DNA of 64,000 nucleotides, from the IMG/VR virus record IMGVR_UViG_3300035661_000004; one strand, given 5' to 3'. The translations under genes and the position numbers were made by a program. The notes beneath the pieces are model-generated. The model was not told the origin of the DNA. It was given only the letters and a program-made list of their open reading frames with translations, and did not search any database. This document shows, piece after piece, positions 4,060 to 55,324 of this stretch (position 1 is the stretch's first letter; every line of letters starts with the position of its first letter). This DNA comes from a virus (lineage: Duplodnaviria; Caudoviricetes).

Positions 4060-4425
4060 TCAGTCAAACTCCCACTGGTCAACTTCGGTCTCGATCCACT
4101 TAGCGATGGCATCCTCGTCATCACCATGGACTACCGCGGGCAGCATCGTTGCGCCGCGGTGCTCGCTCTCGTTGCTGATCGCCCACTTGACGCCATGCTC
4201 AGCCACTATATCATGGTTGATATAGTACATGTAGTTGTCATTCGGTTGCAGCACGACTGTGTTTGCAACGGCCATGTCGGTTGATTGCAATGCAGGCGCC
4301 CAGCCGATGTAGCACCCATCTTGAGAGTAGACCTTGAACTCATGGTCTCGCTCAGCGATGTCTTGCTGGAACATCAGCATGAGCTTTTTCATGCTGATGT
4401 TCTCTAGCAGCGGCTGAATCCTCAC
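4060..4425 (-). CDS. QQ-motif family protein with MRIQPLLE leader (121 aa)
   Basis: GTG at 4425 overlaps the upstream TGA (GTGA); MRIQPLLEN...MLMFQQDIAERDHEFKV. The ORF-track start at 4524 overlaps the upstream gene. Confidence 0.7.
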   Translation of the reverse strand: MRIQPLLENISMKKLMLMFQQDIAERDHEFKVYSQDGCYIGWAPALQSTDMAVANTVVLQPNDNYMYYINHDIVAEHGVKWAISNESEHRGATMLPAVVHGDDEDAIAKWIETEVDQWEFD

Positions 4426-6311
4426 TCCTTCACCACCATGAAGTTGTGCGTGAAGATGTACCGGCCCGGCTCGTCGCCTGCGGCATAGCACTGGTTTAAG
4501 CAGTAGATCGTTGCTACCAACCAACGCCCTTGCGGCTCAACAGAAGTGATGGTCTCCCAGCGGAAGCCGCTGTTGTCCTGCACCGGCAGCTGCTTGCCTA
4601 GCACGTCGGTCGAGTTGCACATTGAGCCGTCGCGCAGAGTCATCGGCGTGTTGTCCGAGCAAGTCAACGTGATGCCAGACTCAGAGGTCAGCTTTAGCAC
4701 GTTTTGCTCGCTGATACGGTTCGTGACAACCTGCCCTGCCATAGAGGACTCGCGCTGGTTCGGTTCGAGCAGCATGAGCGGGTCACCAGCTTGGAGGTTG
4801 CCTGCTTGCTTCTCGGTGAACGGCATGTAGGCTGTCACCTTGACAGATCCGCCGCCACCCCCGCCACCTGGGCTTGGTGAGCCTCCGCCGAATGCGCCGT
4901 TGTAGTTGACTTGCACTTGGTTGCTGAGCGTGTAGCCGAAGTTGTTCCAGACAGCGGCTTGGTAATAGTAACCCGACCCGATTTGAGGGCCGCCGTTCAT
5001 GCTAGTGCTGCCGCCCGTAGCCGCGGAGCCAGCCGGGAAGCTGATGGCTGAGCTGTTGTACGCTGGCACCCACCATTGACCGCCACCCAAGCCTGACGGC
5101 CTGACATTGGTCTGTAGGCCATTAAGGTCAGCGCCTGCAAAAATCGGTGCGCCGGTAAGCGGGCCGTTAGACCAGCCGTAGCTGATCGGGCCTATGCCCG
5201 TAGCGGTCAGCGACAGCGTAACCGGAGTCGTCCAGTTGGTGCTGACGGAGGTTGGCTGCACCGTGATGACCGGCGCCGTACCTGACGTGCTGACAACGAT
5301 GGAGTCTGAGCGGATCGTGCCGGCCGGCGTGATGCCATAGACCTGTGCGGATAGCGAGTGCGTGCCAGTCGAAGTTGCGGTCACGTTGAACGCCAAGGTA
5401 CCCACGCCGCCTGTGATATTGAGCGAGCCTACAATCGCGTTGTCAAAGTCGCCCGAGAGCCCACCGCCTGGGTTAGTCAGGATAGTGTTGACGGTAACAG
5501 TTTGGTCAACAGCTGATGTGAAGTGCAGCGTGATGACAGCATTCTGACCCACGGAGTACGGGCCTGCTGCAAAGGTCGCCGACGTGTACGTGATAGCAGA
5601 ACCAACAGGAGTGCCTGGGGTCGGCGACGGCGTGGAGGCAACGACGGTGACATTAGCTGTACGTGAACCGCCGACGATGTTGCTGCCCGTAGCGGTCGCT
5701 AGCATCGGGTGGAAGCCCGTTGTGACCGTGTTGACCGTGTAGTTCAGATAGCCGATGCCACCAATGATCTGCACTACAGTAGAGTGAGGGCCGCCGGCTC
5801 CCGAGTTGAGACCACCGTCATTGTTGACCAGCGTGACGGTGACCGGCGCAACTTGATCCGTCGGCGACGTGAATGTCAGGGTCAGGGTCGTGCTGCCCCC
5901 GATAGTGACGGATGTAGGTGAAAACTCAAGCGCGGCGTAGGTCACGTCGGTGCTTGGAGATGGGGTAGGTGTTGGGGTAGGGCTTGGAGTCGGGCTCGGG
6001 CTCGGCGTGCTGAACTCAGGGTGTGGCCACATCACAACCCATTGAGCCCCTGTAGTGAACATCTTCAGCTCATCATTCACCGGATTATACCACACCTGGC
6101 CAGCTGTCGGGTGTGCAGGCGCAACGCCGCTCGAGAAACTCTCCAAGAGCTTCATCAGGTTTTCGACCAGATGCTCGCCCCAGTTCTCAACACCCCTGCC
6201 TGTCAATGCCAGCGAAGTGGTCGAGGTATCGATTGACCCAGCGGACAAGGTAAACGGCGCCTTAAGGGAGTCGTTTGACCAGTTGATGGTGTAGTTATTG
6301 AGAGTCGCCAT
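4422..6311 (-). CDS. Tail fibre/baseplate appendage protein with Pro/Thr linker, Ig-like beta repeats and C-terminal Hint (intein-like) domain
   Basis: N-terminal GxxxxNWGEHLVENLMKLLESF...PAHPTAGQVWY module typical of large-myovirus fibres; SPSPTPSPTPTP linker; GGGGGG-SV...YIFTHN Hint-like C-terminus. Confidence 0.75.
   Translation of the reverse strand: MATLNNYTINWSNDSLKAPFTLSAGSIDTSTTSLALTGRGVENWGEHLVENLMKLLESFSSGVAPAHPTAGQVWYNPVNDELKMFTTGAQWVVMWPHPEFSTPSPSPTPSPTPTPTPSPSTDVTYAALEFSPTSVTIGGSTTLTLTFTSPTDQVAPVTVTLVNNDGGLNSGAGGPHSTVVQIIGGIGYLNYTVNTVTTGFHPMLATATGSNIVGGSRTANVTVVASTPSPTPGTPVGSAITYTSATFAAGPYSVGQNAVITLHFTSAVDQTVTVNTILTNPGGGLSGDFDNAIVGSLNITGGVGTLAFNVTATSTGTHSLSAQVYGITPAGTIRSDSIVVSTSGTAPVITVQPTSVSTNWTTPVTLSLTATGIGPISYGWSNGPLTGAPIFAGADLNGLQTNVRPSGLGGGQWWVPAYNSSAISFPAGSAATGGSTSMNGGPQIGSGYYYQAAVWNNFGYTLSNQVQVNYNGAFGGGSPSPGGGGGGGSVKVTAYMPFTEKQAGNLQAGDPLMLLEPNQRESSMAGQVVTNRISEQNVLKLTSESGITLTCSDNTPMTLRDGSMCNSTDVLGKQLPVQDNSGFRWETITSVEPQGRWLVATIYCLNQCYAAGDEPGRYIFTHNFMVVKE
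5945..6010 (-). repeat. Pro/Thr/Ser linker repeat
   Basis: Encodes STPSPSPTPSPTPTPTPSPST. Confidence 0.8.
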
Positions 6312-6316
6312 AGAGC

Positions 6317-6322
6317 TATTTA
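6317..6322 (-). promoter_or_regulatory. Late promoter TAAATA, 5 nt before ATG
   Basis: TAAATA-gctct-ATG. Confidence 0.7.
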
Positions 6323-6534
6323 AGAGTTCCAGTTGTCCACAAACCCCTCAGCCCAACCTTTTACGTCACCGTGGCTTGTATCGGTTGAATACAAGTCATC
6401 ACATTTGACAAAGCGAGCGCACTGAAGCCATGAACAATCATCAGCTTTACGTCAGTTCCGTCTTCGATGAAGGCTTGTTGTAAAGCCAAAGCGAGCTTAC
6501 GGGTCATTGACTCAAGGAGATGTTGGAGCTTCAT
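6320..6534 (-). pseudogene. Frameshifted QQ-motif family gene with MKLQHLLE leader
   Basis: ATGA-coupled start at 6534: MKLQHLLESMTRKLALALQQAFIEDGTDVKL; stops at 6361 after 57 aa, but a one-base shift near 6415 gives ...FVKCDDLYSTDTSHGDVKGWAEGFVDNWNS* ending at 6320. Not in the ORF track. Confidence 0.65.
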
Positions 6535-6872
6535 AGCTTGCTAATGCCTCGTTTGGCTAGCTGTTGATTGCGGTCCGCGAGCATTAGGTTTTCGCTGAGG
6601 GTCTTAAGAATGTCAAACACCTCAGCAAGCGTGTGAGTAAACGTACCCATTGGCGGAGCCTTAGACGTGCCGAGCACGAAGAGGTAAACCTTGGGGTCAT
6701 CCTGGTCTTTAGGCTTCAGCACTTCTACTAGCTTGAGACGACAGTCAAGCAGCTTGATAGTCGAGCTCGTTAGCTGAAGCGTGAGGTTAAGCAGCATCTT
6801 GACATCGAGGTAGTCAAGACGCTCAATGAGCTCCTGCTGTACCTCGAGCAAGTCACGCCTGGTCGCTGTCAT
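6531..6872 (-). CDS. QQ-motif family protein (113 aa)
   Basis: MTATRRDLLEVQQELIERLDYLDVKM; starts 2 nt after the gp6-like stop. Confidence 0.75.
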   Translation of the reverse strand: MTATRRDLLEVQQELIERLDYLDVKMLLNLTLQLTSSTIKLLDCRLKLVEVLKPKDQDDPKVYLFVLGTSKAPPMGTFTHTLAEVFDILKTLSENLMLADRNQQLAKRGISKL

Positions 6873-10359: not shown

Positions 10360-11130
10360 TTATTTAGTCAGGTAGGCAATTGCGTTGTCAAGCGACTCTT
10401 GCCTGCCAGTCACGGCTTCATCTTCGATGAAGATTGGGCGCTTAGGGTAGTGCTTCGTCCAGTCACGCTTAAGCAGCTCCTCATACGTCTCGCCCCAGTG
10501 GAAGATCTCTACGTTAACAAGCTGCTCGACCTTGGAGCGAGGTTGACGACCGGGAACCATCAACGAGTCCTGGTCATCAATGATGATGACGACTTTCTGG
10601 TAGAGGGTAGAGAACCGATGACCATCATCCACAGGCGCAAGGACAAACACAAACCTGTCTGTTGTTGCGCCGTCTGCGGAAACACCTTTGGTCTTGATGA
10701 TGTTGCTGACAGTCTCGTAGTCAAGGTTCTCGAGGTCCTGCTGAAACTTCAAGATGCGCCGCTTTATTGGCACGACACCTTCATCCTCCTTGACCACGGG
10801 CGGCACGTAGGAGAGGCACTTAGGCAAGCGCTTGTACTTGTCCTTCAGCACAGCCACAAGCTCCTGCACGGTCCGGAACTTCTTCTCATGCTTCGAGTCA
10901 ACGAAGTAGGTGCTCGTGTCCTCCCAGCCAAACAGCGGCTTGTAGAGCTTGATCACGTCCCTGAGCCCATAGCCCTTGACCACGATGCAAAGCTTCGAGC
11001 GGTTTATAATTCCGGGTTTTGAGCTGGACTTGACTTCGGCCTCGAAGCCCTTTGCCTCGAGCTCCTTAGCGAAGCGAGACAGGGTTGTATGGGCGCTAGG
11101 GCCTGTATCGAGCAGTTCAAGTAGCTTCAT
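10360..11130 (-). CDS. Hypothetical protein with MKLLELLD leader and internal QQ motif (256 aa)
   Basis: ATGA-coupled start at 11130; internal RRILKFQQDLENLDYET. Confidence 0.75.
   Translation of the reverse strand: MKLLELLDTGPSAHTTLSRFAKELEAKGFEAEVKSSSKPGIINRSKLCIVVKGYGLRDVIKLYKPLFGWEDTSTYFVDSKHEKKFRTVQELVAVLKDKYKRLPKCLSYVPPVVKEDEGVVPIKRRILKFQQDLENLDYETVSNIIKTKGVSADGATTDRFVFVLAPVDDGHRFSTLYQKVVIIIDDQDSLMVPGRQPRSKVEQLVNVEIFHWGETYEELLKRDWTKHYPKRPIFIEDEAVTGRQESLDNAIAYLTK
10361..10366 (-). promoter_or_regulatory. Late promoter TAAATA, 6 nt before the gp6 ATG
   Basis: TAAATA-agccct-ATG. Confidence 0.6.
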
Positions 11131-11795
11131 GCTGGCATCGCCCAACGCTTAAGATTTGTTCCTGGCTTCAGCGTGACGCTGTGGATAAAGTTGGTATGCC
11201 CGGCCACTTTCTTGTGCTTGTTGCCTGGATCATCGACATACATGGCAACGCCCATGCTCATATCGTCTGGGAAATGGTAAGCAGTCGTCCAATGGTTGTC
11301 CGACTCTTTTCTTGCGAGCAACAGGATACCGCCCTCAACATCAGTCTCTTGATGCTTAATGACGGTTGGCCCGTAGTTGTGCCGCATCACCCACTTTGAC
11401 GCTTGAAGCTTTGTCTCGTAGTCCTCATCAATGAGGTACTGTTGAAATTCTAGCGCTTCTGACCGGGCGCTCTCTTTAAGCTCTTGTTGCTGCTCCACCC
11501 AGTTAGCCAATGGCTGCATCGTCATAAACTCATTTACGTCATTGCAAAATCCACGGCCGCTAGCCGCATTCGTGTCCCAATAAAACATCGCGACGGTTAT
11601 CTTGTTGTCGATGCATAAGGCCATGTTAGACAGCGGCTGACCTACATCCTTATCGTTGACCTCTTTCCAATAGCCTTGCGTTGGGTCAATCTTGACGATT
11701 CGAATGTCACTCTCAGGCAAGAGCTCGACGAGTTCTTGCTGAGCCTTTAGGATGGCTGACCGATCAGTTTCTTCAAGCAGTGACTGCAGCTTCAT
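11127..11795 (-). CDS. Tandem double QQ-motif protein with MKLQSLLE leader
   Basis: ILKAQQELVELLPESDIRI and ALEFQQYLIDEDYETKL; ATGA overlaps at both ends. Confidence 0.8.
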   Translation of the reverse strand: MKLQSLLEETDRSAILKAQQELVELLPESDIRIVKIDPTQGYWKEVNDKDVGQPLSNMALCIDNKITVAMFYWDTNAASGRGFCNDVNEFMTMQPLANWVEQQQELKESARSEALEFQQYLIDEDYETKLQASKWVMRHNYGPTVIKHQETDVEGGILLLARKESDNHWTTAYHFPDDMSMGVAMYVDDPGNKHKKVAGHTNFIHSVTLKPGTNLKRWAMPA

Positions 11796-12169
11796 CGCGA
11801 ACCCACCTCGATCCTCAAGTCCTTAGTGACATTGAACTCGATGTATTGGATCTTAGCCACGCAGATAAGCCGGTGGTTGTCCATGTCCGAGATGATGTCG
11901 CACTCTTGCAGCCGCACGCGGGGGTCACCGTTGATGACCTTCAGCACGTCCTCCTTCAAGATGTCCGCGGTGACGGTGTCGTTCGGCTCGAAGACCAGTA
12001 ACGGGATGCGCGTGCCGAAGTCAGGCTGCATGATTCGCTCACCCTTGACGGTGAACAACTCGTTGAAGAGGTCCTCTTGGATCAGCTCGACGTTGTAGAG
12101 GGTGAAGCCTTTGCCGACATTCTCGTAGCCTTTGGTGCTGAACCCACGGTAGAACTTGTACTGGCTCAT
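11792..12169 (-). CDS. gp25: Baseplate wedge subunit gp25-like
   Basis: LFTVKGERIMQPDFGTRIPLLVFEP...INGDPRV motif of the GPW/gp25 family. Confidence 0.9.
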   Translation of the reverse strand: MSQYKFYRGFSTKGYENVGKGFTLYNVELIQEDLFNELFTVKGERIMQPDFGTRIPLLVFEPNDTVTADILKEDVLKVINGDPRVRLQECDIISDMDNHRLICVAKIQYIEFNVTKDLRIEVGSR

Positions 12170-12456
12170 AAGTTATGCCCATGTGCGTAGTCAGCAAACT
12201 CTTGGCCGCTGTAAAAATAGACCGAGTGGAAGCTTCGAGTACGGTCATCGATGACGTTTCTAACGATGCATTCTCGCTCGTTGTACTTGAAGGCGTATAG
12301 CAGCATAGGAGCCCGCTCATCCCTGCTCACAGAGAGCTTGAACTTGTTGCCACCTAGGTGCTTGACATCAACCTCCCACCCAAGGTCAATCAGCTCCTGC
12401 TGAAATTTCAGCACGAAGGTACGGCGTTCATCTTCAAAGATGGCTACGAGCTTCAT
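12166..12456 (-). CDS. QQ-motif family protein with MKLVAIFE leader
   Basis: VLKFQQELIDLGWEVDVKH; ATGA overlaps on both sides. Confidence 0.8.
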   Translation of the reverse strand: MKLVAIFEDERRTFVLKFQQELIDLGWEVDVKHLGGNKFKLSVSRDERAPMLLYAFKYNERECIVRNVIDDRTRSFHSVYFYSGQEFADYAHGHNL

Positions 12457-16944: not shown

Positions 16945-17771
16945 CCTCTCCTGCTAGGCCGCTTCAGCGGCGTGTTGTGGTGATCAACTTCAAGCGGCTG
17001 GACCGGCTTACGAGTGATCAGCGTGTTGTTTGCTCGCGCGCCGACTACGAAGTCGCCGAACACGTCATGCTCGAACTGACCGTCATAGTCATCGCCGTAG
17101 CCTAAGCCGTCAACGCTGTCGGGATCATAGAACACATCAGTTGGAGCGAGCAGACGGCTATAGTAGTCATAGACCGGCAGGGTCGCGTTGCTCGCATGTG
17201 GGACATGCTGATCTACCAACGGTGGGGCGAGGTACAGCGATGCGTTTTCATGCTTTGAGAAGCGCAGCTTTGGCAGAATGACGTTTCCACGGGCGTCATA
17301 CTCTTGCCGTAGCGGCTTGCGAAGCTCGTCAAACTGCTGGCGATGCTGTCTGTGATCAACGCCGGCGCCGTGCTGGCGGAGGTCAATCTCAGAGACGAGC
17401 TTAACCGAACCCGAGGCGATGTCAGTCAACGCTACGGTGTGCCTATTAAGGTCAGGGTTGGAGCTTTCGAGAATGTCAAGGATGACAGAGACAGGCACGA
17501 CGCGGAAGCTAGGTAGCAGCCTGAAGACTACGTTCGTTTCAGACAGGCCATAACGGCCTTCGTCACGGTAGACGCCGATCAAGATTCGCTGGCCGAAGAG
17601 AGTCCACTGTCTCGCTCCAAGCTCCGGTGCAGGCTGCCAAAGCACCAAGCACTGGTAGTCGTCATGGTTGTCAGGCTCGTAGATCCAGCAACCTTTAGGT
17701 TGAGGCAGCTCCTCGCGAGGAGCGGACAGGTTGTCAAACTCCCCGCCTCCTCCTTCAGGGTCATAACTCAT
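16941..17771 (-). CDS. Hypothetical protein
   Basis: 276-aa ORF with ATGA overlaps at both ends; no recognised motif. Confidence 0.65.
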   Translation of the reverse strand: MSYDPEGGGGEFDNLSAPREELPQPKGCWIYEPDNHDDYQCLVLWQPAPELGARQWTLFGQRILIGVYRDEGRYGLSETNVVFRLLPSFRVVPVSVILDILESSNPDLNRHTVALTDIASGSVKLVSEIDLRQHGAGVDHRQHRQQFDELRKPLRQEYDARGNVILPKLRFSKHENASLYLAPPLVDQHVPHASNATLPVYDYYSRLLAPTDVFYDPDSVDGLGYGDDYDGQFEHDVFGDFVVGARANNTLITRKPVQPLEVDHHNTPLKRPSRRG

Positions 17772-18460
17772 GCCGCGTCCTTCTCAACCTTCTGCTTCGC
17801 CGACTCTTCAGGCGGCGGCTTGATCATCTTGATCTTGCTAACCAGCAGGTCGAGGATGTCATCATTGACCTTAGGTCCGTAGAACTTCTTAAAGGCTGCA
17901 ACCTGCTTGGCTTCGTCCTCGCCGGCGCGCTGGAAAGCTTCACGGATAGTCGTGCCGGACTGGTTACCGTCTCGAGCATTGCTGATCACATAGTAGGCGC
18001 CTGGAGGATCGGACTCGCCGGTCTTCAAGCCGGCGGCTGCATGCGCAAAGGGCACCGGCTTGCCTGACTTGGTCGGGTACTGCTCGAAGAACTTTGACGA
18101 CTCATAGCGCTCTACGTCCTTATCGCCGGCTACCATGACCATCACAGTAGGAGCCTTGTAGAGCTCAAGCACCTCCTTCGGAGCGAAAGCAGGGTTCTTG
18201 CACTCGATGATCTTCTCAGGCGAGATGCCGAACAGCTGAACCATGATCTCGACCCGCTCCTCAAAGGTGAACGGCGAGATGTCACCGTTGCCTGGGTCAA
18301 AGTTGGTCTTGTTGGAGGTCGCGATCCACACGGCACCTTCGCCGAACTGCTTGCACAGCTCACGGTAGACCGAGTAGTGACCCTTGTGGAAAGGCTGGAA
18401 CCGGCCGCCGTAGATGACGGCTAAGAGCTTGCGCTCTTCGAGGAGGACTGAGAGCTTCAT
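17768..18460 (-). CDS. HIGH-class nucleotidyl/cytidylyltransferase-like protein with MKLSVLLE leader
   Basis: YGGRFQPFHKGH (HxGH) motif and C-terminal SGTTIRE. Confidence 0.8.
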   Translation of the reverse strand: MKLSVLLEERKLLAVIYGGRFQPFHKGHYSVYRELCKQFGEGAVWIATSNKTNFDPGNGDISPFTFEERVEIMVQLFGISPEKIIECKNPAFAPKEVLELYKAPTVMVMVAGDKDVERYESSKFFEQYPTKSGKPVPFAHAAAGLKTGESDPPGAYYVISNARDGNQSGTTIREAFQRAGEDEAKQVAAFKKFYGPKVNDDILDLLVSKIKMIKPPPEESAKQKVEKDAA

Positions 18461-18807
18461 TGCTTGTTAAACCGATCTATTACTTCGCCCATCGTTTTTG
18501 TAAAAGCATCATCTAAGATAGTATCGTCGGGGGCTTGCAAAAACTGCTTGAACGGTGACATGATGTACACCGAATCTGCTCTAATTGCATATGTGACACT
18601 ATTGTACAAAGCGGTGCTCATGACAGCGTCAACGGTAGCTTTGTCAATCAGCGTTAGCTGCTTAACAAAGGCTGGATTACGCCCCGCGGTCACAGGTGAG
18701 ATGCGGGTTGCAATGTCACCGTGTTCAATTAATGCTTGCTGGCAGCGTAGCACCCACCGCCTCAGCATTAAGTCGAGTGATGATTCAAAGAGAGCCGTCA
18801 ACTTCAT
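18457..18807 (-). CDS. QQ-motif family protein with MKLTALFE leader
   Basis: RRWVLRCQQALIEHG; ATGA-coupled. Confidence 0.75.
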   Translation of the reverse strand: MKLTALFESSLDLMLRRWVLRCQQALIEHGDIATRISPVTAGRNPAFVKQLTLIDKATVDAVMSTALYNSVTYAIRADSVYIMSPFKQFLQAPDDTILDDAFTKTMGEVIDRFNKQ

Positions 18808-19169
18808 TTTCCGTCTCGCTTTACAGGGCGCGCCAGCTCACAGTCCTTGATCACGTAGTCGATGAACTTAGCTTCGTTGTCGAATTGTCTGCAAGCTAGC
18901 ATGCAATGTCCATCCTTGACATCGATTTCACCTGACGTGTATTCAGCGACGTAGATTCCTGGGACATAGCCTTCGTCAACGTGCGGTGCTTGAGACTCAA
19001 CCCAAATCATGTATGCCTTGATGATCGACCCGCCTGGGACAGGCAGGTACCGCGCCCTCGGCCTTAGCTTCAAGTCGCGGTGCGGCAACGCTTCAACGAG
19101 CAGCTGTTGAAAGCGAAGCGCTGTCTGCCTGAGCGCGAGAGGCTGTTCCAAGAGGGCATAAATACGCAT
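18804..19169 (-). CDS. QQ-motif family protein with MRIYALLE leader
   Basis: ALRFQQLLVEALPHRDLKL; TAAATA 4 nt upstream of the ATG. Confidence 0.75.
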   Translation of the reverse strand: MRIYALLEQPLALRQTALRFQQLLVEALPHRDLKLRPRARYLPVPGGSIIKAYMIWVESQAPHVDEGYVPGIYVAEYTSGEIDVKDGHCMLACRQFDNEAKFIDYVIKDCELARPVKRDGK

Positions 19170-20652: not shown

Positions 20653-20667
20653 AAGCAATATATTCTC

Positions 20668-22543: not shown

Positions 22544-24427
22544 ATGAGCAAGGTTACGTTCGAGGACATGTGGTGGAAGAATTTCATGTCCTTCGGCAAC
22601 GTCATGACGACGGTCGATCTGACACGACCAGGTACCACCTTGATTGTCGGCGAGAACGCCGATGAAGGTGGCTCGTCCGGCGCCGGCAAGACCACGATCA
22701 TGAACGTGCTGTCCTACATCGTCTACGATAAGATCCCTCGTGATGATGTGAAGAAGGACAAGCTGATCAACAACATCAACAACGCCAAGACCATCACGAT
22801 GGAGGCGGGGCTCAACCTAACAGTGGGCGTTGACAAGTATAAGCTAGAGCGCCGGCGTGGGTATAACGCCGGCGTCGGGATGTGGAAGAACGGCGTCGAC
22901 ATCACGCCTGACTCGGTCGCCAACTTCAACCTGGCAGCTGAAGAGCTGATCGGCTTCTCCTACAACCTCTTTAGTCAGATCATCCTCTTCAACGGCAGCT
23001 CAACTCCTTTCCTGAGCCTGTCAGGACCCGAGCAGCGCTCGCTGATCGAGGAGCTCCTGCGGATCACCCTGCTGTCGCGCAAGGCTGAAGCTTTGAAGCT
23101 GCTCATGTCAGCGACCGAGAGCGAGCTGAAGATCAACTTAGCCTTGATCGAGCAGCAGAAGAAGCACGCCGAACGGCACCAGCAGATGATCGCCGCCGCA
23201 GAGAAGCGCGTCTCAGACTGGAACATCCAGCACGTCGCGGATATCCGAGCGCAGGAGGTCAAGCTTGAAACTCTGATGTCGGTTGACTTTGACGCCGAGG
23301 AGCAGATCCATGCTATGATCAAGGAGCTGCAAGAGAAGATCGCGCCTATCGACAGCGCAATTAGCCAGCATGCGGCTCTGATTCGGGCCGAGCGAGCTAA
23401 AACTTACCCAGGCAGCAGCAAGATCGCAGTCATGCGGCGCGACCTCGCCGCTTTGAAGAGCGAGAAGGCTAAGTATGAGGCTGAGCTGGGTCACCTCGCT
23501 GACGCCAAGTGCCCGTACTGCTTGCAAAAGTTCGAGGACGCTGCGAGTAAGATCGCTGAGCTGCAGGTCAATCTCGACTCCGCTACCATCGCTCTAGCTA
23601 CCTTGTCTAACGGGTTGCAGCTTGAAGTAGACTCTCAGGTCATGTTTGAAACCCAACGCGACAATGTCGCCGGCAACATGGAGCTGGACCTTGAAGCGAT
23701 GCGGGAGAGCAAGGTCAGCCTAGCTGGAGAGCTGGCTGACTACCAAGCCGTCCTGACCTACAAGACCTACAAGGACCACGTCAACGCCGCGTCGATGGCA
23801 GGCACGCTTGCTGACAAGATCGACAAGCTAAAGGATGAGGTCAATCCCCACCTTGACGCGCATGCGGCTTTGAAGAATGATCCAGGCGTACAGCTCGACA
23901 CCACCAAGGTTGACGAGCTGACCAAGCTGAAGGAGCACCAGAAGGTTCTCCACAAGCTGCTGACTGACAAGAACAGCTACATCCGCAAGGGCATCATCAG
24001 CAAGACGCTGCCGTTCCTCAACAAGCGGATCGCCTACTACACCGAGCGGTTGGGCCTGCCGCATGTTGTGCTCTTCCAGCCTGACATGTCTTGCGAGATC
24101 GCTAAGATGGGTCTAGAGCTTAGTCACGGAAACCTGTCCAACGGCGAGCAGAAGCGCTTGAACCTTGGCCTGTGCTTCGCCTTCCGGGACGCGCTAACTT
24201 ACCTGCACTCCAAGGTCAACGTCCTGCTAACCGACGAGGTCGACGGCGGCTCGCTCGATGAGCAAGCGGTGACAGCGATGATCTCGCTGCTGAAGCACAA
24301 AGCGTGGGACGACAAGATCGGCATCTTCATCATCTCGCACCGCCCCGAGTTTGACGGCAAGTGCGACCGGAACCTGATCGTCCGCAAGGAGTGCGGGTTC
24401 TCCTCGCTGATCAAGCAGGTTGACTAA
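22544..24427 (+). CDS. gp46: Rad50/SbcC-like recombination ATPase (T4 gp46)
   Basis: Walker A GAGKT, zinc hook CPYC, signature LSNGE, Walker B LLTDE, H-loop ISHR. Confidence 0.92.
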   Translation: MSKVTFEDMWWKNFMSFGNVMTTVDLTRPGTTLIVGENADEGGSSGAGKTTIMNVLSYIVYDKIPRDDVKKDKLINNINNAKTITMEAGLNLTVGVDKYKLERRRGYNAGVGMWKNGVDITPDSVANFNLAAEELIGFSYNLFSQIILFNGSSTPFLSLSGPEQRSLIEELLRITLLSRKAEALKLLMSATESELKINLALIEQQKKHAERHQQMIAAAEKRVSDWNIQHVADIRAQEVKLETLMSVDFDAEEQIHAMIKELQEKIAPIDSAISQHAALIRAERAKTYPGSSKIAVMRRDLAALKSEKAKYEAELGHLADAKCPYCLQKFEDAASKIAELQVNLDSATIALATLSNGLQLEVDSQVMFETQRDNVAGNMELDLEAMRESKVSLAGELADYQAVLTYKTYKDHVNAASMAGTLADKIDKLKDEVNPHLDAHAALKNDPGVQLDTTKVDELTKLKEHQKVLHKLLTDKNSYIRKGIISKTLPFLNKRIAYYTERLGLPHVVLFQPDMSCEIAKMGLELSHGNLSNGEQKRLNLGLCFAFRDALTYLHSKVNVLLTDEVDGGSLDEQAVTAMISLLKHKAWDDKIGIFIISHRPEFDGKCDRNLIVRKECGFSSLIKQVD

Positions 24428-24689
24428 GGCTGCCAGGGTACGCGTCAACATGCTTGACGATCATGGCTGCAAACTGCGCTCGGGTGCTCATTCTCCAATA
24501 CTGATAGCCACCGACAGCTCGCCATGAGATGGTGGCGTCAGTTGTCGAGCTAACATACACATATGTGTTGTCAGGTAGCCTGACCTCCAAGCATGGCTCA
24601 ATCAAACCTCGCCAGAGCTTGACCTGAACACAGTCGGGTAGCTCAGCAACGAGCCATTGCTCAAGAGCAAACAGTTCGATCCTAGTCAT
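24411..24689 (-). CDS. Hypothetical protein, divergent QQ-family member
   Basis: MTRIELFALEQWLVAELPDCVQVKL; TTTACA-16-TACAAT promoter 7 nt upstream. Confidence 0.55.
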   Translation of the reverse strand: MTRIELFALEQWLVAELPDCVQVKLWRGLIEPCLEVRLPDNTYVYVSSTTDATISWRAVGGYQYWRMSTRAQFAAMIVKHVDAYPGSLSQPA

Positions 24690-27744: not shown

Positions 27745-27970
27745 CTAAATGCAATAGGACACATGGCTTGGCAACCGCCAACACCTTCGTTCTAAGCATA
27801 TGATGAGGTATGGGCCTCCTAAGCCTTCCGTCAGCTGTTGCTTAGTACTGGAGGTCGGGATCACGTCGTTTGAGCTCCACGTGACCTTGCCCGCATTGGT
27901 GTGAAGGTAGAGCTGCCCGTTCTTCTGGCTCAGCTTGATGTCAGTAGGTGCTGTTGCAGCTTAAGGAGCT
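27745..27970 (-). pseudogene. Frameshifted QQ-domain remnant at the 3' end of the HNH gene
   Basis: HNH ORF ends LLKLQQHLLTSS*; another frame continues DIKLSQKNGQLYLHTNAGKVTW to TAG at 27745. Confidence 0.5.
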
Positions 27971-34197: not shown

Positions 34198-35873
34198 TGG
34201 CTGGTCAATTTGTAGACTTCTGGAGGATTGTCAAGCCCTCCGCACCGAAGACCAGCTACGTTGGTGACCCTGACGACTTCAAGCTCTACAGCAACTTCAG
34301 CTGGTATAGCAAGGTCATGAAGGGTGCGGGTAGCCGCTTCCAAAAGTACTCGCAGTACAAGAACATGGACGGCGACGTGTTCGTCTCTCGCGCGCTTGAT
34401 CAGATTGCGGCTGAGATGACGAGCGAGGACACAAAGACCAACCTCCCTTTCAAGATTACGTATCAGTCTGAGGCCAATGAGGAGGTGCCTGAGAACATCG
34501 TTGTGACCGTGCGCGCTGCCCTGCGGCACTGGTGTGACATGCAGAACCTGTATAAGCTAAGCTTTGACATCGCTCGCATGACGGTCAAGTTCGGCGACTG
34601 CTTCTTCCGCAAAACCTCTGACTTCAAACTGTGGGAGTATGTTGACCCGTCCGACGTGATCGGCATCCACTTGGACAAGGAAACGGGCAAGCCCCAGTTT
34701 TACCAAGTGCGTAAGGGCGACAGCTCTGACAAGAACTCCTTCGGTGACGCTGAGATCGTGCCTGCTGCAGGCATGGTCCACTTCTCGCTGTCTTCGGGCA
34801 TCGGCGACAATGGACCGTTCGGCGAGTCCGTCCTCTTTCCGGTCATCAAGGCGTTCCGCCACTTGAGCTTGCTGCAAGACTCGGTCATCATCTACCGAAT
34901 CGTGCGAGCCCCTGAACGTCGCGTCTTCTCGATTGACGTGGGCAACATGCCGCCCCAGCGCGCTAAGGCCTACCTCGAAGCGATCAAAAACGAGATCAAG
35001 CAGAAGCGCATGCCTAACGAGTCGGGCGGTCAAGAGAAGATCGACAGCGTCTACAACCCGATGTCCATGGTCGAAGATTACTTCTTCATGCAAACGGCCG
35101 ACGGCCGAGGCTCAAAGGTTGACACGCTCTCCGGCGGTGAGAACCTCGGCGAGATCAAGGACCTGAACTACTTCCAGAACATCTTCCTGCAAGGCCTGCG
35201 GATCCCATCGAGCTACATGCGCGGTTCGGATGACAACGGCTCGCAGGTGCAGGACGGTAAGGTCGGCGTCGCCTACATGGAGGAGCGCAACTTCTTCAAG
35301 TACGTGCAGCGGCTGCAGCGCAACCTATGCCCGTCCTACGACCGCGAGTTCAAGGCTTACCTCAAGTCAGCAGGCATCCGTGTCGACTCGAACCTGTTCA
35401 AGATTGAGCTCACCGACCCGCAAAACTTCGACGTGTACAAGCAGGCCGAAGTCGATGAGAAGTTGATGTCCAACTTCAACAATATCAAGGACGTTGAGTT
35501 CATCGCCGGGCGCGTTAAGCTGTCGCGCTACCTGGGTTGGTCAGAAGACGAGATCCAAATGAACGAAGAGATTCTCAAGAAGGAGCTTGGCCTGCCTGCC
35601 GATGACATCGACGAGCGCCTGACCATCATCCGCATGATGTACGACAAGAACTGGATCGAGCATCGCCCTGAGCCGAAGGTTGACGAGTCGTGGGACAACC
35701 ACGTAGCGGCCTCGAAGCAGCAGGTAGCCCCAGAGGAACAAGAGCCGGCTGAAGACGAAGCCGCGCCGGAGGAGGAAGCTGAAGAAGGCGGCGAAGAGGA
35801 AGCTCCGGATGACGAAGCAGAAGCAGGCGCTGACCTGCCATCCGTCGATGACATGAAGAAGACCTTAGGATGA
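34197..35873 (+). CDS. gp20: Portal vertex protein
   Basis: SVIIYRIVRAPERRVFSIDVGNMP...EDYFF...GRGSKVDTLSGGENLGE motif; TAATG-coupled start. Confidence 0.95.
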   Translation: MAGQFVDFWRIVKPSAPKTSYVGDPDDFKLYSNFSWYSKVMKGAGSRFQKYSQYKNMDGDVFVSRALDQIAAEMTSEDTKTNLPFKITYQSEANEEVPENIVVTVRAALRHWCDMQNLYKLSFDIARMTVKFGDCFFRKTSDFKLWEYVDPSDVIGIHLDKETGKPQFYQVRKGDSSDKNSFGDAEIVPAAGMVHFSLSSGIGDNGPFGESVLFPVIKAFRHLSLLQDSVIIYRIVRAPERRVFSIDVGNMPPQRAKAYLEAIKNEIKQKRMPNESGGQEKIDSVYNPMSMVEDYFFMQTADGRGSKVDTLSGGENLGEIKDLNYFQNIFLQGLRIPSSYMRGSDDNGSQVQDGKVGVAYMEERNFFKYVQRLQRNLCPSYDREFKAYLKSAGIRVDSNLFKIELTDPQNFDVYKQAEVDEKLMSNFNNIKDVEFIAGRVKLSRYLGWSEDEIQMNEEILKKELGLPADDIDERLTIIRMMYDKNWIEHRPEPKVDESWDNHVAASKQQVAPEEQEPAEDEAAPEEEAEEGGEEEAPDDEAEAGADLPSVDDMKKTLG

Positions 35874-36442
35874 AGCTATCTAACCTGCTCGAAGGAGCTG
35901 TCCCCCGGCAACAGCTCTTGAAGTTCCAGCAAGAGTTGGTTGATCAGCTTGATGATGACTTCAACGTGCAGGTTAGCAGCGACAAGATCCTAATTCGACA
36001 CCCTTCCCTGAAGCAGCCGATGAAGCTCGACATGAAGGACCCGGAGCATGTCAGATTTTACGCTCAGAAATGCAGCATTAACCATCCGCTGTTCATTCAC
36101 GGTGTAGTCGAGATCATCAATGAGCGAATGGCTATTCCTAAGATGAAGGCGTGGCTGCTCGCGCATGGCTTTAAGCAGCTCACAAATGATGAGAAAGCTG
36201 AGCTGTGCGCAAGGCATAACGTGACACTGTATTCAGCTGGCTCGAAGATGGAGAACTTCCATCATGAAGCACACGGCAGCGAGCCTCCGATCATCGTGAT
36301 GCTTGGTTATGACAGCTATAAGAACGTGCATATGAATTACATGCTGTTGCCATTTGATAAGATGCCTCAAAATAAGTTTCTCCAAGGCCATGACTTTGAG
36401 GGCTATGATGACATGGTCAAGAAGCTCGAGAAGATAGTATGA
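35870..36442 (+). CDS. QQ-motif family protein with MKLSNLLE leader
   Basis: RQQLLKFQQELVDQLD; lies between portal and protease. Confidence 0.8.
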   Translation: MKLSNLLEGAVPRQQLLKFQQELVDQLDDDFNVQVSSDKILIRHPSLKQPMKLDMKDPEHVRFYAQKCSINHPLFIHGVVEIINERMAIPKMKAWLLAHGFKQLTNDEKAELCARHNVTLYSAGSKMENFHHEAHGSEPPIIVMLGYDSYKNVHMNYMLLPFDKMPQNKFLQGHDFEGYDDMVKKLEKIV

Positions 36443-36945
36443 AGCTGACTAACCTGCTTGAGCAAACCGTTACCTCGAAGGATATGCTCACTGTTCAACA
36501 AGCTGTTGTGGATGACTTGCATGATGACAGCTGGGAGATTAGCTTGTCAAAGGGTGCATTGACAATGAAAAAGGGCGACGTCAAAGTAACATTCAACTTT
36601 GAGAGCCGTACTATCACCTCAGCTCAGCCTAAGCTCGTCTACGAGGTTGACTTTGCTGACCATCCCGAAGCGGCCTTGCTATCAGTGGCTGCCCTACTTG
36701 ACCTGAAGCATGAGTTGGTTAAAAGCTTAAAAGGCTACAAATACAGCTTCATCATCAATGACGGCGACGGGACGATTTTGCTAATCGCTGAGAAGCGCAT
36801 CCACCCATCGACATTTGAAGTACGCTTTGAGTTTGAGTATGACGGTGAGTGGATAGCTAATCATGCTGATAAGTCAGGTGACCGAACAGCTAGTTTTACC
36901 TCACTTGAAGACACCATGGTGTGGGTCGAAGAGTGGGAAGGATGA
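36439..36945 (+). CDS. QQ-motif family protein with MKLTNLLE leader
   Basis: KDMLTVQQAVVDDLHD; ATGA-coupled. Confidence 0.8.
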   Translation: MKLTNLLEQTVTSKDMLTVQQAVVDDLHDDSWEISLSKGALTMKKGDVKVTFNFESRTITSAQPKLVYEVDFADHPEAALLSVAALLDLKHELVKSLKGYKYSFIINDGDGTILLIAEKRIHPSTFEVRFEFEYDGEWIANHADKSGDRTASFTSLEDTMVWVEEWEG

Positions 36946-37016: not shown

Positions 37017-37652
37017 ATGTCTGACAAGCTCGTTCTCATCGAAAGCATCCACCCGTCGAACGCACGGCTGATTGTCGAGGAGCATGACTCTACGAAGTCC
37101 TCCTACCTCAGCGGCATCTTCATGCAAGCTGACCTCGTCAACGGCAACGGTCGTGTGTACCCGCTGGAGGAGATCGCCGCTTCGGTGAACTCGATCAACC
37201 AGCGTATCGCTGAAGGCCAGACGGTCTACGGCGAGCTGAACCACCCCGACAACCTGACGATCGACCTCAACAACGTGTCGCACATCATCACCGAGATGAA
37301 GATGGACGGCGCAAACGCGATCGGCAAGGCACGCATCATCGAAGGTCACCCGAAGGGTCAGATCGTTAAGGCTATCTTGAACGCTGGCGGCAAGCTGGGC
37401 GTCTCCTCGCGCGGCTCGGGTAACGTGGTCGAAGGCCGCGTGTCAGGCTTCTCGCTAGTAACCGTTGACGTAGTTGCAACTCCGTCCGCACCGAATGCAT
37501 TCCCTGGCCATGTCATGGAAGCGCTGACAGAAAATAAGAAGATCATGACCCTCGCTGAAGCGATGGTCCACAGCAATGACGCCCAGAAGTACTTCGCGAA
37601 GGAGCTCGCCTTCTTCTTCGAAAAGCTCACTGGCCAACAGCTCAGGAAGTAA
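37017..37652 (+). CDS. gp21: Prohead core protease
   Basis: GIFMQAD..NGNGRVYP, GELNHP, GVSSRGSG, VDVVATPSAP. Confidence 0.95.
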   Translation: MSDKLVLIESIHPSNARLIVEEHDSTKSSYLSGIFMQADLVNGNGRVYPLEEIAASVNSINQRIAEGQTVYGELNHPDNLTIDLNNVSHIITEMKMDGANAIGKARIIEGHPKGQIVKAILNAGGKLGVSSRGSGNVVEGRVSGFSLVTVDVVATPSAPNAFPGHVMEALTENKKIMTLAEAMVHSNDAQKYFAKELAFFFEKLTGQQLRK

Positions 37653-39606: not shown

Positions 39607-40962
39607 ATGCAATTTCTGAAAGAAGCAAAGGTTTGGGGCGAAGCCAAGTCCGCTCTGCTCGAAAACCTTGACCCGACCAAGACGCGTATCGTCGACCTCG
39701 CGCTGGAAAACCAGCGCAAGTACCTCCTGGAAACTGCTGGCGCTGACGTCGTTTCGACCGGCAACGTCGCTAACTTCCAGAAGATCATGATGCCTATGAT
39801 CCGCCGGATCATCCCTGGCACCATCGGTACCGAAATCGTTGGCGTTCAACCGCTGACTGGCCCAACCGGTCTGATCTTCTCCATGCGCTACGTTTACAAG
39901 AACGCAGCAACCACGGCTGAAACCACGGCTGGCGACATCGCAGTTGATGACGAAGCTTTCGGCAATACGTCTGCTTCGGCACCGTACGCTGGCAAGATGC
40001 GTCGCTTCTACTCCGGTGGCGTGACTCCTGGTGCTTCGGGCGGCCTGTACAACGCTTCTGGCGTTGCAAACGGCGGCGCGTTCACACCGGCTGGCGCGTT
40101 CTCGCTGTCTAGCTCCCCACTGTCTGGCAACGCCGGCGATGTCATCGACATGGAAGCCTTCCCAGGCCGTTCCATGGGCATCCAAGTGCTGCGTCAGGCT
40201 GTTGAAGCCAAGACCCGCAAGCTGCAAGCTAAGTGGTCGATCGAAGCTATGCAGGACCTGTCCTCGCAGCACGGTCTCGACCTCGAAGCTGAGATCACGC
40301 AGGCTCTGTCTGCCGAAATCGTGCACGAAATCGATAACGAAATCGTTACCGACCTGATCCGTCTGGCTGGTACGACTGAGCTGTTCGATATGGCTGGTTC
40401 CTTCACGGGCACCCCGCACTACATCGGTGACCGCCACGCTGTTCTCGGCGTGCTGATCAACAAGGTGGCAAACGACATCGGCGCTAAGACACGTCGCGGC
40501 ATGGCGAACTTCGCTGTGGTCAACCCGCAAATCGTGTCGGTGCTGCAGTCCGCTGCAAAGTCCGTCTTCGCACCTGCCGTTTCTGGCTCGTTCGAAGGTC
40601 CGAACAACACCAAGCTGGTTGGTACACTGAACGGCGCGATCAAGGTTTACTCCTTCCTGTTCGATGCATCGTTCGGTACTGTGGCAGCTGCTTCGGCAGT
40701 CCCAGGTGGCGCAGGCGCTTCGTCGCAGATCGTTCTGATCGGCTACAAGGGCGGCAACGGCGAAACGGACGCAGGTTACTTCTACTGCCCGTACATCCCG
40801 CTGATGACCAGCAACACCGTTGTGGATCCACAGACCTACAACAACCAAATCGCGGTCATGACCCGCTACGGCAAGGCAACGTTCACTTCGAGCGCTTCCT
40901 CCCTGGCGAACTCGGCCGACTACTACGGCAAGATCGTCGTCAACAACCTCACGTTCCTGTAA
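39607..40962 (+). CDS. gp23: Major capsid protein
   Basis: VGVQPLTGPTGLIFSMR, TRKLQAKWSIE, FYCPYIPL, MTRYG motifs. Confidence 0.97.
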   Translation: MQFLKEAKVWGEAKSALLENLDPTKTRIVDLALENQRKYLLETAGADVVSTGNVANFQKIMMPMIRRIIPGTIGTEIVGVQPLTGPTGLIFSMRYVYKNAATTAETTAGDIAVDDEAFGNTSASAPYAGKMRRFYSGGVTPGASGGLYNASGVANGGAFTPAGAFSLSSSPLSGNAGDVIDMEAFPGRSMGIQVLRQAVEAKTRKLQAKWSIEAMQDLSSQHGLDLEAEITQALSAEIVHEIDNEIVTDLIRLAGTTELFDMAGSFTGTPHYIGDRHAVLGVLINKVANDIGAKTRRGMANFAVVNPQIVSVLQSAAKSVFAPAVSGSFEGPNNTKLVGTLNGAIKVYSFLFDASFGTVAAASAVPGGAGASSQIVLIGYKGGNGETDAGYFYCPYIPLMTSNTVVDPQTYNNQIAVMTRYGKATFTSSASSLANSADYYGKIVVNNLTFL

Positions 40963-41408: not shown

Positions 41409-41792
41409 ATGGCGCACGCTAGCATCCCATTCTTCCTCAAGCTGCAAGCTGCGCTCATCGACAACATCGATGATTGCAAGACTAGGCTTAAACGGGAACA
41501 GGATGAGCCTTGCCTCATCTATCATGACCCGGCCCTCGGCCGCTTGTACTTTAGGCATATCGGAAAGTCCATCACTGTTAGCATAGGCCGAGACGGCAAC
41601 CGCGAACGTGTGACCAGGCTGCCCAGCCCGATCTCAGCAGCAATTGGGTCAGAGCTGTTTGAGGAGAACATGAGCTCGATCGGCATTGCGGTGACCCACA
41701 TTGTCTATCGTCGTGCCCGCGCTCGGGACACGTTGGATAACACCAATACCTATAGCGAACTGGTCTTCGATAAGTTCTATGCTGTCGTATAA
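41409..41792 (+). CDS. QQ-family-like protein without leader
   Basis: FFLKLQAALIDNIDDCK; GTTTACA-17-TAAAAT promoter 6 nt upstream. Confidence 0.65.
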   Translation: MAHASIPFFLKLQAALIDNIDDCKTRLKREQDEPCLIYHDPALGRLYFRHIGKSITVSIGRDGNRERVTRLPSPISAAIGSELFEENMSSIGIAVTHIVYRRARARDTLDNTNTYSELVFDKFYAVV

Positions 41793-41958
41793 GCGTTTCC
41801 TGCTTGAGGTTCAACAGCTTCTGCTATCGAGCGATGAGGCCATTGGGGCTCTCAAGGTGCCTAGCACGACCGTGCACTCGGTGCGGATCATTTCTCCTAG
41901 CGACCGTAACTTCCTGAACGGCGACGAAGTCACCTTTGGCGGCTGGGACATCCCGTGA
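41779..41958 (+). CDS. Short QQ-motif protein (59 aa)
   Basis: MLSYKRFLLEVQQLLLSSD; overlaps the previous gene by 14 nt. Confidence 0.55.
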   Translation: MLSYKRFLLEVQQLLLSSDEAIGALKVPSTTVHSVRIISPSDRNFLNGDEVTFGGWDIP

Positions 41959-43929: not shown

Positions 43930-44337
43930 TCATTTCCAGGCTGATTTCCAGGCTGAGAGCTTCTTACCAGTCAGCATCCTGGCCATTGCCTTGCGCTGCT
44001 TCTCATGCTCCGCAAAGACAAAGGGTAGCTGTCCTACAATCAGCGGTACCAGCTTCTCAAAGCTGATGATTGGTGAGTCAAAGATGCCAAACCAACCATC
44101 GCCGGCTCCGTACACGGCCCCTGCGCCCACGTAGATTTCAGCTGAGTCGCGCTCGCTTCTCGCTATCACAAGCTTTACGGTCTCTTCGTCATGCTTGACC
44201 GTCCCTGTATTGGTGATCAGCTCGCGCTTGATCGTGTGATGCTTGCGGGCCAGCTTGATATCGAGGTCAGCGTCAAACTCGACCAACGCTTGCTGGAGCT
44301 TCAGCGCACGTTGCACTGCGTTGTCGGGCGTGCTCAT
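43930..44337 (-). CDS. QQ-motif family protein without leader
   Basis: MSTPDNAVQRALKLQQALVEFDADLDIKL. Confidence 0.7.
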   Translation of the reverse strand: MSTPDNAVQRALKLQQALVEFDADLDIKLARKHHTIKRELITNTGTVKHDEETVKLVIARSERDSAEIYVGAGAVYGAGDGWFGIFDSPIISFEKLVPLIVGQLPFVFAEHEKQRKAMARMLTGKKLSAWKSAWK

Positions 44338-54270: not shown

Positions 54271-54272
54271 GC

Positions 54273-54968
54273 ATGCATATCCGCCCCCTGCTTGAGCGCC
54301 CAGTCAACGTGCACGTCAACGGTCAGCTAACTGTCCTGGTCGACTTGATCAAGCGTGACTTTGGCTCCGAGCTCCGAGCAATTCCGTTCGACCAACGTTG
54401 TATGACAGCTCAAGTCGCGTACGTGTTAAGCGCCCGAACTCAAGTTCCGCTCACGGATTTGCTGAAGATCTTTGCTACCGCTTACAACAAGAAGCTTGAT
54501 CGTCAGGCGCGCTACAAGGTTGACGCTTACGGTGTTACGCCGCAACAGCTGTTCGACGCTTATGACGGGTTCAAGCTGGTAATCAAAGATAAGCCCTATA
54601 AGCTAAAGCTTAGCTTTGACCACTATACATCGGTTGAAGAGATCGTGAGCGCGGTTAAGGAAGGTCACCCTGTAATTGTCCCTTACAATTCATACGGGCG
54701 GTTTAGCAATGGTGCTAATCACCACTCTAATGAGGGGAAGTTTCATCAAAAATTCATTGATCGCCGTGGCGTTCGTGACCCGCACAGCAGCTATTATCAC
54801 GCGCTGCTTGCTGTAGGCGTTGACGAAGGCTCTAAAGAGGTAATCCTGCGAGACATTCGCTCGCTGTACCTGTTTAAAGGCTATGTCAAGGTGCCGTACA
54901 AGGCGATGCGTAACTACATCAAGATGGCGTTCACCTTTGACGCCGACTTAGAGCCGGTGCAGCCATGA
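54273..54968 (+). CDS. Papain-like (C39-type) cysteine peptidase with MHIRPLLE leader
   Basis: DQRC catalytic Cys region, KEGHPVIV, HALLAVGVD...ILRD. Confidence 0.6.
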   Translation: MHIRPLLERPVNVHVNGQLTVLVDLIKRDFGSELRAIPFDQRCMTAQVAYVLSARTQVPLTDLLKIFATAYNKKLDRQARYKVDAYGVTPQQLFDAYDGFKLVIKDKPYKLKLSFDHYTSVEEIVSAVKEGHPVIVPYNSYGRFSNGANHHSNEGKFHQKFIDRRGVRDPHSSYYHALLAVGVDEGSKEVILRDIRSLYLFKGYVKVPYKAMRNYIKMAFTFDADLEPVQP

Positions 54969-55324
54969 AGCTTCAACGCGTGCTAGAAGCTGTGCTGGTG
55001 CAAGTCGTGCCTAAGCCAAACTCGCCCTCCTACTTGCGTAAGCAGGCACTTGAAATGCAACAGCTGCTGGTCGATGATGACTGGGACACGAAAGTCCAGT
55101 TCACGACTACCAACACAAACATACCGTGCGTCATTATCTCGTGCACGAAAGAAGCGAGTGAGATGGACACGCCGCATGCTGATAAGGTGATCGGTTATTA
55201 CATCGCTGAGGGCTCTCATCATAATGTTAAAGGCCACGAGTATGTCAACTGGGAAGTCCACAGCCATGGCGGCTATATGACCATGTCAGACATTGTCGCT
55301 TGGCTGCATAGGACATACGCATGA
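54965..55324 (+). CDS. QQ-motif family protein with MKLQRVLE leader
   Basis: RKQALEMQQLLVDDDWDTKV. Confidence 0.75.
   Translation: MKLQRVLEAVLVQVVPKPNSPSYLRKQALEMQQLLVDDDWDTKVQFTTTNTNIPCVIISCTKEASEMDTPHADKVIGYYIAEGSHHNVKGHEYVNWEVHSHGGYMTMSDIVAWLHRTYA

Follow-up and report, generated by a model that had tools for sequence, protein, structure and literature searches.

Phage T4 brings diverse internal proteins to its prohead core by means of a 10-residue capsid-targeting sequence (CTS) that is then removed; its prohead protease gp21 cleaves after the Glu of L/I-x-E, and Alt loses six residues at ITE-6 (PMC9026906, PMC5694885, PMC3012670). In SPN3US (gp53/gp54) and in the phiKZ gp93 family, strongly diverged paralogs keep an N-terminal propeptide with protease motifs (PMC5694885). 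Here we describe a family of small proteins, termed QQ proteins after a residue pair that is invariant in the first helix of their domain, encoded in a 64-kb stretch of viral DNA (IMG/VR record IMGVR_UViG_3300035661_000004). This entire analysed stretch is called the window, and family counts cover its full length. Gene content identifies the source as an uncultured jumbo myovirus of the Rak2/XacN1-like type. QQ proteins appear to form a duplicated, lineage-specific family of small late proteins, and we put at roughly 45% the probability that they are T4-style internal proteins, targeted to the capsid and trimmed by a protease.

The likeness to T4 IPI, IPII, IPIII and Alt lies in small proteins that differ widely but begin with a short conserved leader closing in L/I-x-E, a T4-type S77 protease encoded nearby, late expression, and gene content that varies between related phages. 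Differences are also evident. No sequence similarity of QQ proteins to the T4 proteins was found in PHROG and Pfam searches at E<=0.1, no direct alignment with the T4 internal proteins having been made, and at least 13 copies occupy one window as opposed to 3 to 4 in T4. Moreover, conservation in QQ proteins is not confined to the leader but includes a helix and a strand of a shared domain, tandem and possibly polyprotein forms occur, and packaging and cleavage are predictions from the genes. SPN3US gp53/gp54 and the phiKZ gp93 family likewise are diverged paralogs with a conserved N-terminal part, but they belong to another phage lineage in which the protease is of family S80 and the motif is A/S-x-E. 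Those ejection proteins are large and have been seen in virions by mass spectrometry, whereas QQ proteins are known only as genes. What is new is the protein family; the proposed logic is that of T4, applied to duplicated proteins whose conserved N-terminal part is longer and some of which are tandem. In the literature on the CTS we found no such expansion in Rak2-like phages.

The QQ protein family

Translated in six frames, the window contains the strict motif h-L-x-x-Q-Q-x-h-h-[DE] (h, hydrophobic; x, any residue) 12 times, compared with a mean of 0.03 and a maximum of 1 in 100 dinucleotide-preserving shuffles; a loose form was observed 18 times versus 1.18 expected in the same shuffles. 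Leave-one-out profile hidden Markov models (HMMs) recovered 12 domains in 11 open reading frames (ORFs), each at 20.6-43.5 bits with E values of 3e-5 to 2e-12, referred to 1403 six-frame pieces. Shuffled versions of any member (200 shuffles) reached at most 10.3 bits. Naming ORFs by the position of their start codon in the window, the domains lie on the minus strand in 4425, 6534, 6872, 11795 (two copies), 12456, 18807, 19169 and 44337, and on the plus strand in 35870, 36439 and 54965. A profile built from external metagenomic homologues alone recovered the same set plus 24689 (E 9e-4). Every QQ motif reported in the initial annotation, which was made from the DNA without database searches, was located at its claimed start codon and strand. 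The scores above rule against the possibility it had raised that the motifs share no mutual similarity. Its figure of about 16 domains proved partly right: we count 11 solid ORFs and two probable ones (11130, 24689), while two are marginal (41409, 41779) and one is only a possible remnant (27950). Its view that no named family is involved agrees with our searches, in which no member matched a Pfam, PHROG or PDB-sequence family (Pfam and PHROG: none at E<=0.1). We therefore regard the QQ family as real, unnamed and new.

When the family profile was run against 1.84 billion representative proteins, it gave 41 matches, of which about 10 came from the window itself and 3 were false positives. About 25 were small metagenomic proteins with the consensus MKLxxLLE..R..LLxLQQxLIDxLPDDyDV. 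External homologues are denoted here by P-numbers (P0008, P0024 etc.) and related metagenomic phage loci by L-numbers (L003, L005, L023 etc.). P0008, P0012, P0016 and P0026 are tandem members; neither the tandem nor the fused external members, P0013 among them, matched Pfam. The ankyrin-repeat protein P0017 and the repeat protein P0041 were judged chance matches; P0034 (4801 aa) was judged so from the match table alone, its 36.5 bits being spread over 8 stretches. Searching 50,697 phage records by tblastn with the 11795 protein and P0008 gave nothing relevant, and the sole match of the family profile to the complete genome of Ralstonia phage RsoM2USA, the nearest cultured relative, scored 13 bits and contained stop codons. 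The family thus appears absent from cultured phages. The metagenomic protein P0013 (518 aa) begins MTFRNFLAE, close to the T4 CTS (MKTYQEFIAE); an unrelated part of about 280 residues follows, then two QQ domains, one with ISE ahead of it and the other with LTE. It is a candidate leader-enzyme-QQ-QQ polyprotein.

Within the window, pairwise similarity among members fades after the first 24-50 residues (BLAST, hhalign). AlphaFold2 modelled the 96-aa 12456 protein from a 23-sequence alignment with a predicted local distance difference test score (pLDDT) of 91.5 and a predicted template modelling score of 0.80. The model comprises helix 4-24 (the QQ helix), five antiparallel strands and helix 84-93; the first ten residues average a pLDDT of 62, and the QQ helix reaches 96-98. 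The D-x-K motif of the family lies in the first strand. The 35870 model has an overall pLDDT of 53.8 and an uninterpretable C-terminal half; its residues 13-98 form a helix, five strands and a helix as in 12456, and its leader is a separate short helix of low confidence. ESM Atlas models of 54965 and 19169 (pLDDT about 0.6, no usable neighbours) are of low confidence, so a fold shared by all members is not established. The initial annotation had proposed a docking helix plus strand with highly variable C-terminal parts, and had suggested structure prediction as a test for a shared alpha-beta core. The restricted span of similarity agrees with variable C-terminal parts, and 12456 and the N-terminal half of 35870 share one topology. 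At least one member, however, has the QQ helix built into a compact domain, so that it is not a free docking helix there. The conserved helix and strand may serve as a second docking element, or may just form the core of the structure.

Structural comparison of the 12456 fold yielded weak matches of a generic kind. Foldseek found no match in PDB or BFVD at E<=0.001, and its best hit in afdb_clusters had E 0.055. VIA-align gave a best Z of 6.8, to the Med17 C-terminal domain, with 5.5 to threonyl-tRNA synthetase (ThrRS) and 4.7-5.0 to HisRS-like domains, all within its noise range, and an atlas shape search gave a TM of 0.69-0.70 over 83 residues to an HGTP_anticodon fragment. Generic two-layer alpha+beta sandwiches (Med17 C-terminal, PI31/Fbxo7 FP, aminoacyl-tRNA synthetase anticodon-binding and T4 MotA C-terminal domains) have the same helix-antiparallel sheet-helix arrangement. 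They align over 77-96 residues at Z 5.3-6.8, scores expected of unrelated proteins with a common arrangement, and show no sequence signal.

Leader, protease and capsid cleavage site

Most members share the N-terminus MKLxxLLE (or MRIxxLLE), a feature overlooked by the initial annotation. The pattern h-[LF]-E at positions 5-10 is present in 11 of 15 family ORFs, typically as MKLxxLLE-8, and a linker of 9-23 residues, variable and often containing Gly or Pro, connects it to the QQ helix. The leader is an element separate from the domain, as linker length varies, leader pLDDT is low and the leader forms its own short helix in the 35870 model. We propose a unit consisting of a leader of about 8 residues, the variable linker and a small alpha+beta domain.

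The leader is portable to unrelated proteins. Among non-family proteins, 4 to 5 of 50 carry h-[LF]-E at positions 5-10 versus 0.47 expected (P about 1e-4), the carriers being a cytidylyltransferase, a scaffold-like protein and the products of the 42008 and 54273 genes. The cytidylyltransferase-like enzyme (17768..18460, minus strand), which lies outside the QQ family, has the leader MKLSVLLEE ahead of a catalytic domain that matches Pfam CTP_transf_like from residue 16 and contains the motif GGRFQPFHKGH. Its ortholog in L023 (8433-9191) begins MKISTLLEE; because the leader is kept, the protein may be a packaged enzyme, like Alt in T4. Small non-QQ genes in the L014 head module begin MLLKELLE and MKLQDVLFE. 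In the window, the non-QQ proteins encoded at 54273-54968 (+), 42008-42247 (+) and 37655-38161 (+) have the leader-like N-termini MHIRPLLE, MSIFTTLLE and MELELLKSLVILTE; none of the three matched Pfam or PHROG.

The window encodes a protease that would suit such a leader and a putative substrate of it. A T4 gp21-type prohead protease (37017..37652, plus strand; Pfam Peptidase_S77 96.6 bits, phrog_207 3e-60) starts MSDKLVLIE and so has LIE-9 at its N-terminus, as does T4 gp21 (PMC9026906). The gp23-type major capsid protein (39607..40962, plus strand) matches Pfam Gp23 at 307 bits, with the profile starting at residue 54. When it was aligned with T4 gp23 and gp24 by MAFFT, the T4 cleavage sites LTE65|A and LRE10|S fell on YLLE42|T, a position occupied by YLTE and HLME in capsid proteins of relatives. 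We infer an L/I-x-E specificity for the S77 protease of the window. A scaffold-like protein starts MDEILKKLLE and has 16 [LI]xE sites in 302 residues; its similarity to T4 gp22 by BLASTP was not significant, and a scaffold role is suggested by position and composition. In tandem QQ proteins, [LIV]xE lies 8-16 residues before QQ in 7 of 8 internal copies (P about 6e-6).

These features suggest the following course. The leader would act like the T4 CTS and carry a QQ protein into the prohead core, where the S77 protease would trim it by a cut after L-x-E and would divide tandem forms into single domains at the h-x-E ahead of each copy. Mature QQ domains would be retained in the head and delivered to the host with the DNA, and could there serve in anti-defence. 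The initial annotation had compared the family with T4 internal proteins. That comparison gains circumstantial support from the leader, which it had not seen and which is compatible with the L/I-x-E site expected for the S77 protease that the phage itself encodes. A more ambitious form of the proposal is possible, though doubtful: an enlarged T4-like cargo system in which the MKLxxLLE tag loads at least 13 diversifying QQ proteins plus enzymes such as the cytidylyltransferase, tandem forms are polyproteins cut by the S77 protease, and the QQ helix and strand are a second docking or retention element with no T4 counterpart.

Late operons and individual members

Core genes recognised in the window encode baseplate proteins (gp5-like hub, gp25, gp53, gp6), head proteins (T4-type portal, Peptidase_S77 head protease, Gp23-type capsid protein), sheath, neck adaptor and SbcCD. 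The gp6-like baseplate wedge protein (6875-10354, minus strand) has 43% identity to its RsoM2USA counterpart, with farther matches in XacN1, Xoo-sp13, PA5oct, CBB and Atu_ph07. By megablast, 16 kb of the window had no nucleotide-level match among the 50,697 phage records. Contigs near-identical to the window derive from sediment and microbial-mat metagenomes.

T4-type late promoters have TAAATA as their core. Both strands together contain 25 copies of this hexamer, mainly just 5' of gene starts, with sites at 19179(-), 12468(-), 10366(-), 6322(-), 41997(+), 25552(+), 24721(+) and 63564(+). It lies 4-6 nt ahead of the ATG of 19169 (4 nt), 12456 (6 nt), 42008, gp6 and a gene for a 629-aa structural protein, and 4 nt ahead of the ATG in the homologues P0016 and P0012 from other phages. 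Further sites are found in the relatives L023 (about 3115-3128) and L005 (about 671-684). Since this spacing leaves no room for a Shine-Dalgarno sequence, late mRNAs are suggested to be leaderless or near-leaderless.

The positions of QQ genes bear out the initial claim that they are inserted between core genes, here in late structural operons. The baseplate cluster runs 19169, 18807, cytidylyltransferase, on to gp53, a 551-aa protein, hub, 12456 and gp25, and continues with 11795, 11130, gp6, 6872, 6534, the 629-aa protein, 4425 and a 2843-aa giant gene. The head cluster is ordered portal, 35870, 36439, protease, and the neck cluster neck adaptor, 54273, 54965. The coupling by ATGA described as usual in the initial annotation applies to 9 of 15 family ORFs if GTGA overlaps with the upstream gene are included, and not to the remaining 6; ATGA-coupled partners include portal, hub, gp25 and neck-region genes. 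The portal-to-protease interval contains no gene at all in RsoM2USA, L009, L012, L014, L015 or L016, and the orthologous operon of L023 lacks the 19169 and 18807 copies ahead of the cytidylyltransferase. QQ genes are best described as lineage-specific insertions into late structural operons.

On the minus strand, the baseplate operon opens with 19169 (18804..19169; 121 aa, MRIYALLE, leave-one-out 30.6 bits), followed by 18807 (18457..18807; 116 aa, MKLTALFE, 26.7 bits, E 3.4e-7). A GIY-YIG/NUMOD3 homing-endonuclease-like gene (19861-20727, minus strand) is situated between the divergent operons. The structurally modelled member 12456 (12166..12456; 96 aa, 34.4 bits) has the gp5-like hub gene on one side and gp25 on the other, each overlapping it via ATGA. 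The 222-aa 11795 protein (11127..11795) has two tandem copies, at 35.5 and 27.3 bits, with ELKE preceding the second copy 10 residues ahead of QQ. The probable member 11130 (10360..11130; 256 aa, MKLLELLD) gave an in-window E of 0.016 and contains two degenerate copies (a FAKEL helix and ILKFQQDLEN). Its homologue P0024 (375 aa) has the same two degenerate copies together with a clear N-terminal one, on which basis we interpret 11130 as a multi-copy member with degenerate helices; the P0024 gene is also downstream of gp25, with a homing-endonuclease-like gene in between.

Farther along this cluster, 6872 (6531..6872; 113 aa, 25.7 bits, E 7.6e-7; E 1.5e-7 with the external-only HMM) lacks the MKL leader and starts 2 nt past the stop of the gp6-like gene. 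It is overlapped via ATGA by 6534 (6361..6534), a truncated copy of 57 aa that begins MKLQHLLE and has the highest score (43.5 bits, E 2e-12). The 4425 gene (4060..4425; 121 aa, MRIQPLLE, 20.6 bits, E 2.8e-5) has a GTG start that overlaps the stop of the upstream 629-aa gene (GTGA). Downstream of it, the giant 2843-aa ORF (1-4004, minus strand) extends past the window start (L019 12308-20839) and corresponds in position to the 2540-aa gene after gp6 in RsoM2USA. The remaining solid minus-strand member, 44337 (43930..44337; 135 aa, or 128 aa from the GTG at 44316; 29.4 bits, E 5e-8; P0011), has no MKL leader.

Plus-strand members are 35870 (35870..36442; 190 aa, MKLSNLLE, 40.7 bits), which overlaps the portal gene via ATGA; 36439 (36439..36945; 168 aa, MKLTNLLE, 34.9 bits), immediately upstream of the head protease gene; and 54965 (54965..55324; 119 aa, MKLQRVLE, 36.0 bits), which has a 23-residue linker before QQ and overlaps the leader-bearing 54273 gene via ATGA. 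The portal genes of L009 (2373-5294) and L014 (3-2888) encode 973 and 961 aa versus 558 in the window; the roughly 400 extra codons map to window position 35064, match Pfam Intein_splicing at 32 bits (below cutoff) and probably represent an intein absent from the window portal. Two plus-strand candidates are not established as members: 41409 (41409..41792; 127 aa, FLKLQAALID), in the variable region past the capsid gene, at E 0.06 (external profile) to 3.9, and 41779 (41779..41958; 59 aa, LLEVQQLLL) at E 0.18-0.24.

The divergent probable member 24689 (24411..24689, minus strand; 92 aa) has EQ in place of QQ, no leader and no TAAATA. It scored 3.1 bits with the window-only profile, that is, was not found by it; its SbcC/PDDEXK junction and relative orientation match those of clear members in L005 and L023. 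At that junction the window has a DUF7487 gene (24732-25547, plus strand) adjoining the decayed copy, and L005 and L023 instead have intact QQ genes with late promoters. The possible remnant 27950 (27747..27990, minus strand) comprises the C-terminus of an HNH endonuclease ORF (27930-28400, minus strand), which ends in the QQ-type helix LLKLQQHLL before a stop, and the rest of a QQ domain from PTDIKL onward in a different frame. Unmodified, it is not significant (E 0.8-2.7); with the frames joined by X at the break, E becomes 0.014-0.07. It is plausibly a frameshifted copy, a family member to which an HNH gene became joined by fusion or insertion.

Packaging and competing explanations

Several observations weigh against capsid targeting. 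The majority of copies reside in baseplate rather than head operons, and three solid or probable members (6872, 44337, 24689) are without a leader. The L-x-E tripeptide is frequent in helices, and the ATGA overlap partly dictates Lys at position 2. The h-x-E before internal copies may be due in part to common descent of duplicated units. Finally, conservation does not stop at the leader but takes in the QQ helix and the first strand, a reach that the T4 CTS model leaves unexplained.

Of the competing accounts the one that survives best, although we consider it unlikely, is that QQ proteins stay in the cytoplasm as late accessory proteins and never enter the virion, with MKLxxLLE and the QQ helix forming the conserved structural or oligomerisation core of a small, rapidly evolving domain, and that they act in the infected cell as regulators, inhibitors or adaptors. 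The QQ helix is integral to the fold in the 12456 model, and the three leaderless members and a conserved stretch of about 35 residues, beyond the length of a T4-type CTS, fit the same account. It leaves unexplained, however, why the leader occurs on unrelated proteins and is kept on the cytidylyltransferase ortholog, why a variable linker containing Gly or Pro follows it, and why it matches the aligned cleavage site of the capsid protein.

Alternatively, QQ proteins could be assembly accessories or consumable components of the prohead core or baseplate, akin to gp67/gp68 or chaperones, that are degraded or discarded after morphogenesis. For eight copies, translation is coupled to that of baseplate genes, and 35870 and 36439 occupy the position of T4 gp67/gp68 between portal and protease, likewise with ATGA overlaps and with L/I-x-E within the first 6-10 residues. 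Family HMMs nevertheless give gp67 and gp68 0 bits or less, and no sequence similarity to gp67, gp68 or gp22 was found. RsoM2USA and five related metagenomic phages have no counterpart of the 35870/36439 pair here, and the operon-start copies are also missing in a close relative. As close relatives build the same virion without them, these copies would not be essential virion parts, and RsoM2USA has no member at all; we consider this account distinctly improbable.

Least probable of all is a nucleic-acid-binding module that spread selfishly, riding with or fused to homing endonucleases and other enzymes: the HNH ORF whose end is a QQ helix and behind which the rest of the domain is frameshifted, the homing-endonuclease-like gene adjoining P0024 in L003, the joining of an unrelated N-terminal part to two copies in P0013, and a weak resemblance to the T4 MotA C-terminal DNA-binding and aminoacyl-tRNA synthetase anticodon-binding domains (Z about 5.3-5.5) all accord with it, but the structural matches are within aligner noise (best Z 6.8), member net charges are mainly neutral or acidic, most copies have no endonuclease neighbour, and the paralogs diverge so widely in DNA sequence that their spread was not recent.

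If the MKLxxLLE tag is not a targeting signal, the QQ proteins would be merely another unannotated paralog family in a jumbo phage, and such families are common there. The family also supplies a compact domain that can be modelled with confidence and lends itself to structural and binding work. If, as we propose, the leader addresses the capsid, small proteins in large number and of changeable make-up would be injected by the phage at the onset of infection, the stage at which counter-defence proteins act, T4 IPI* among them. A mechanism described for three or four proteins of T4 would then extend to a whole gene family of jumbo phages, and a sequence rule would become available to predict injected cargo from metagenomes.

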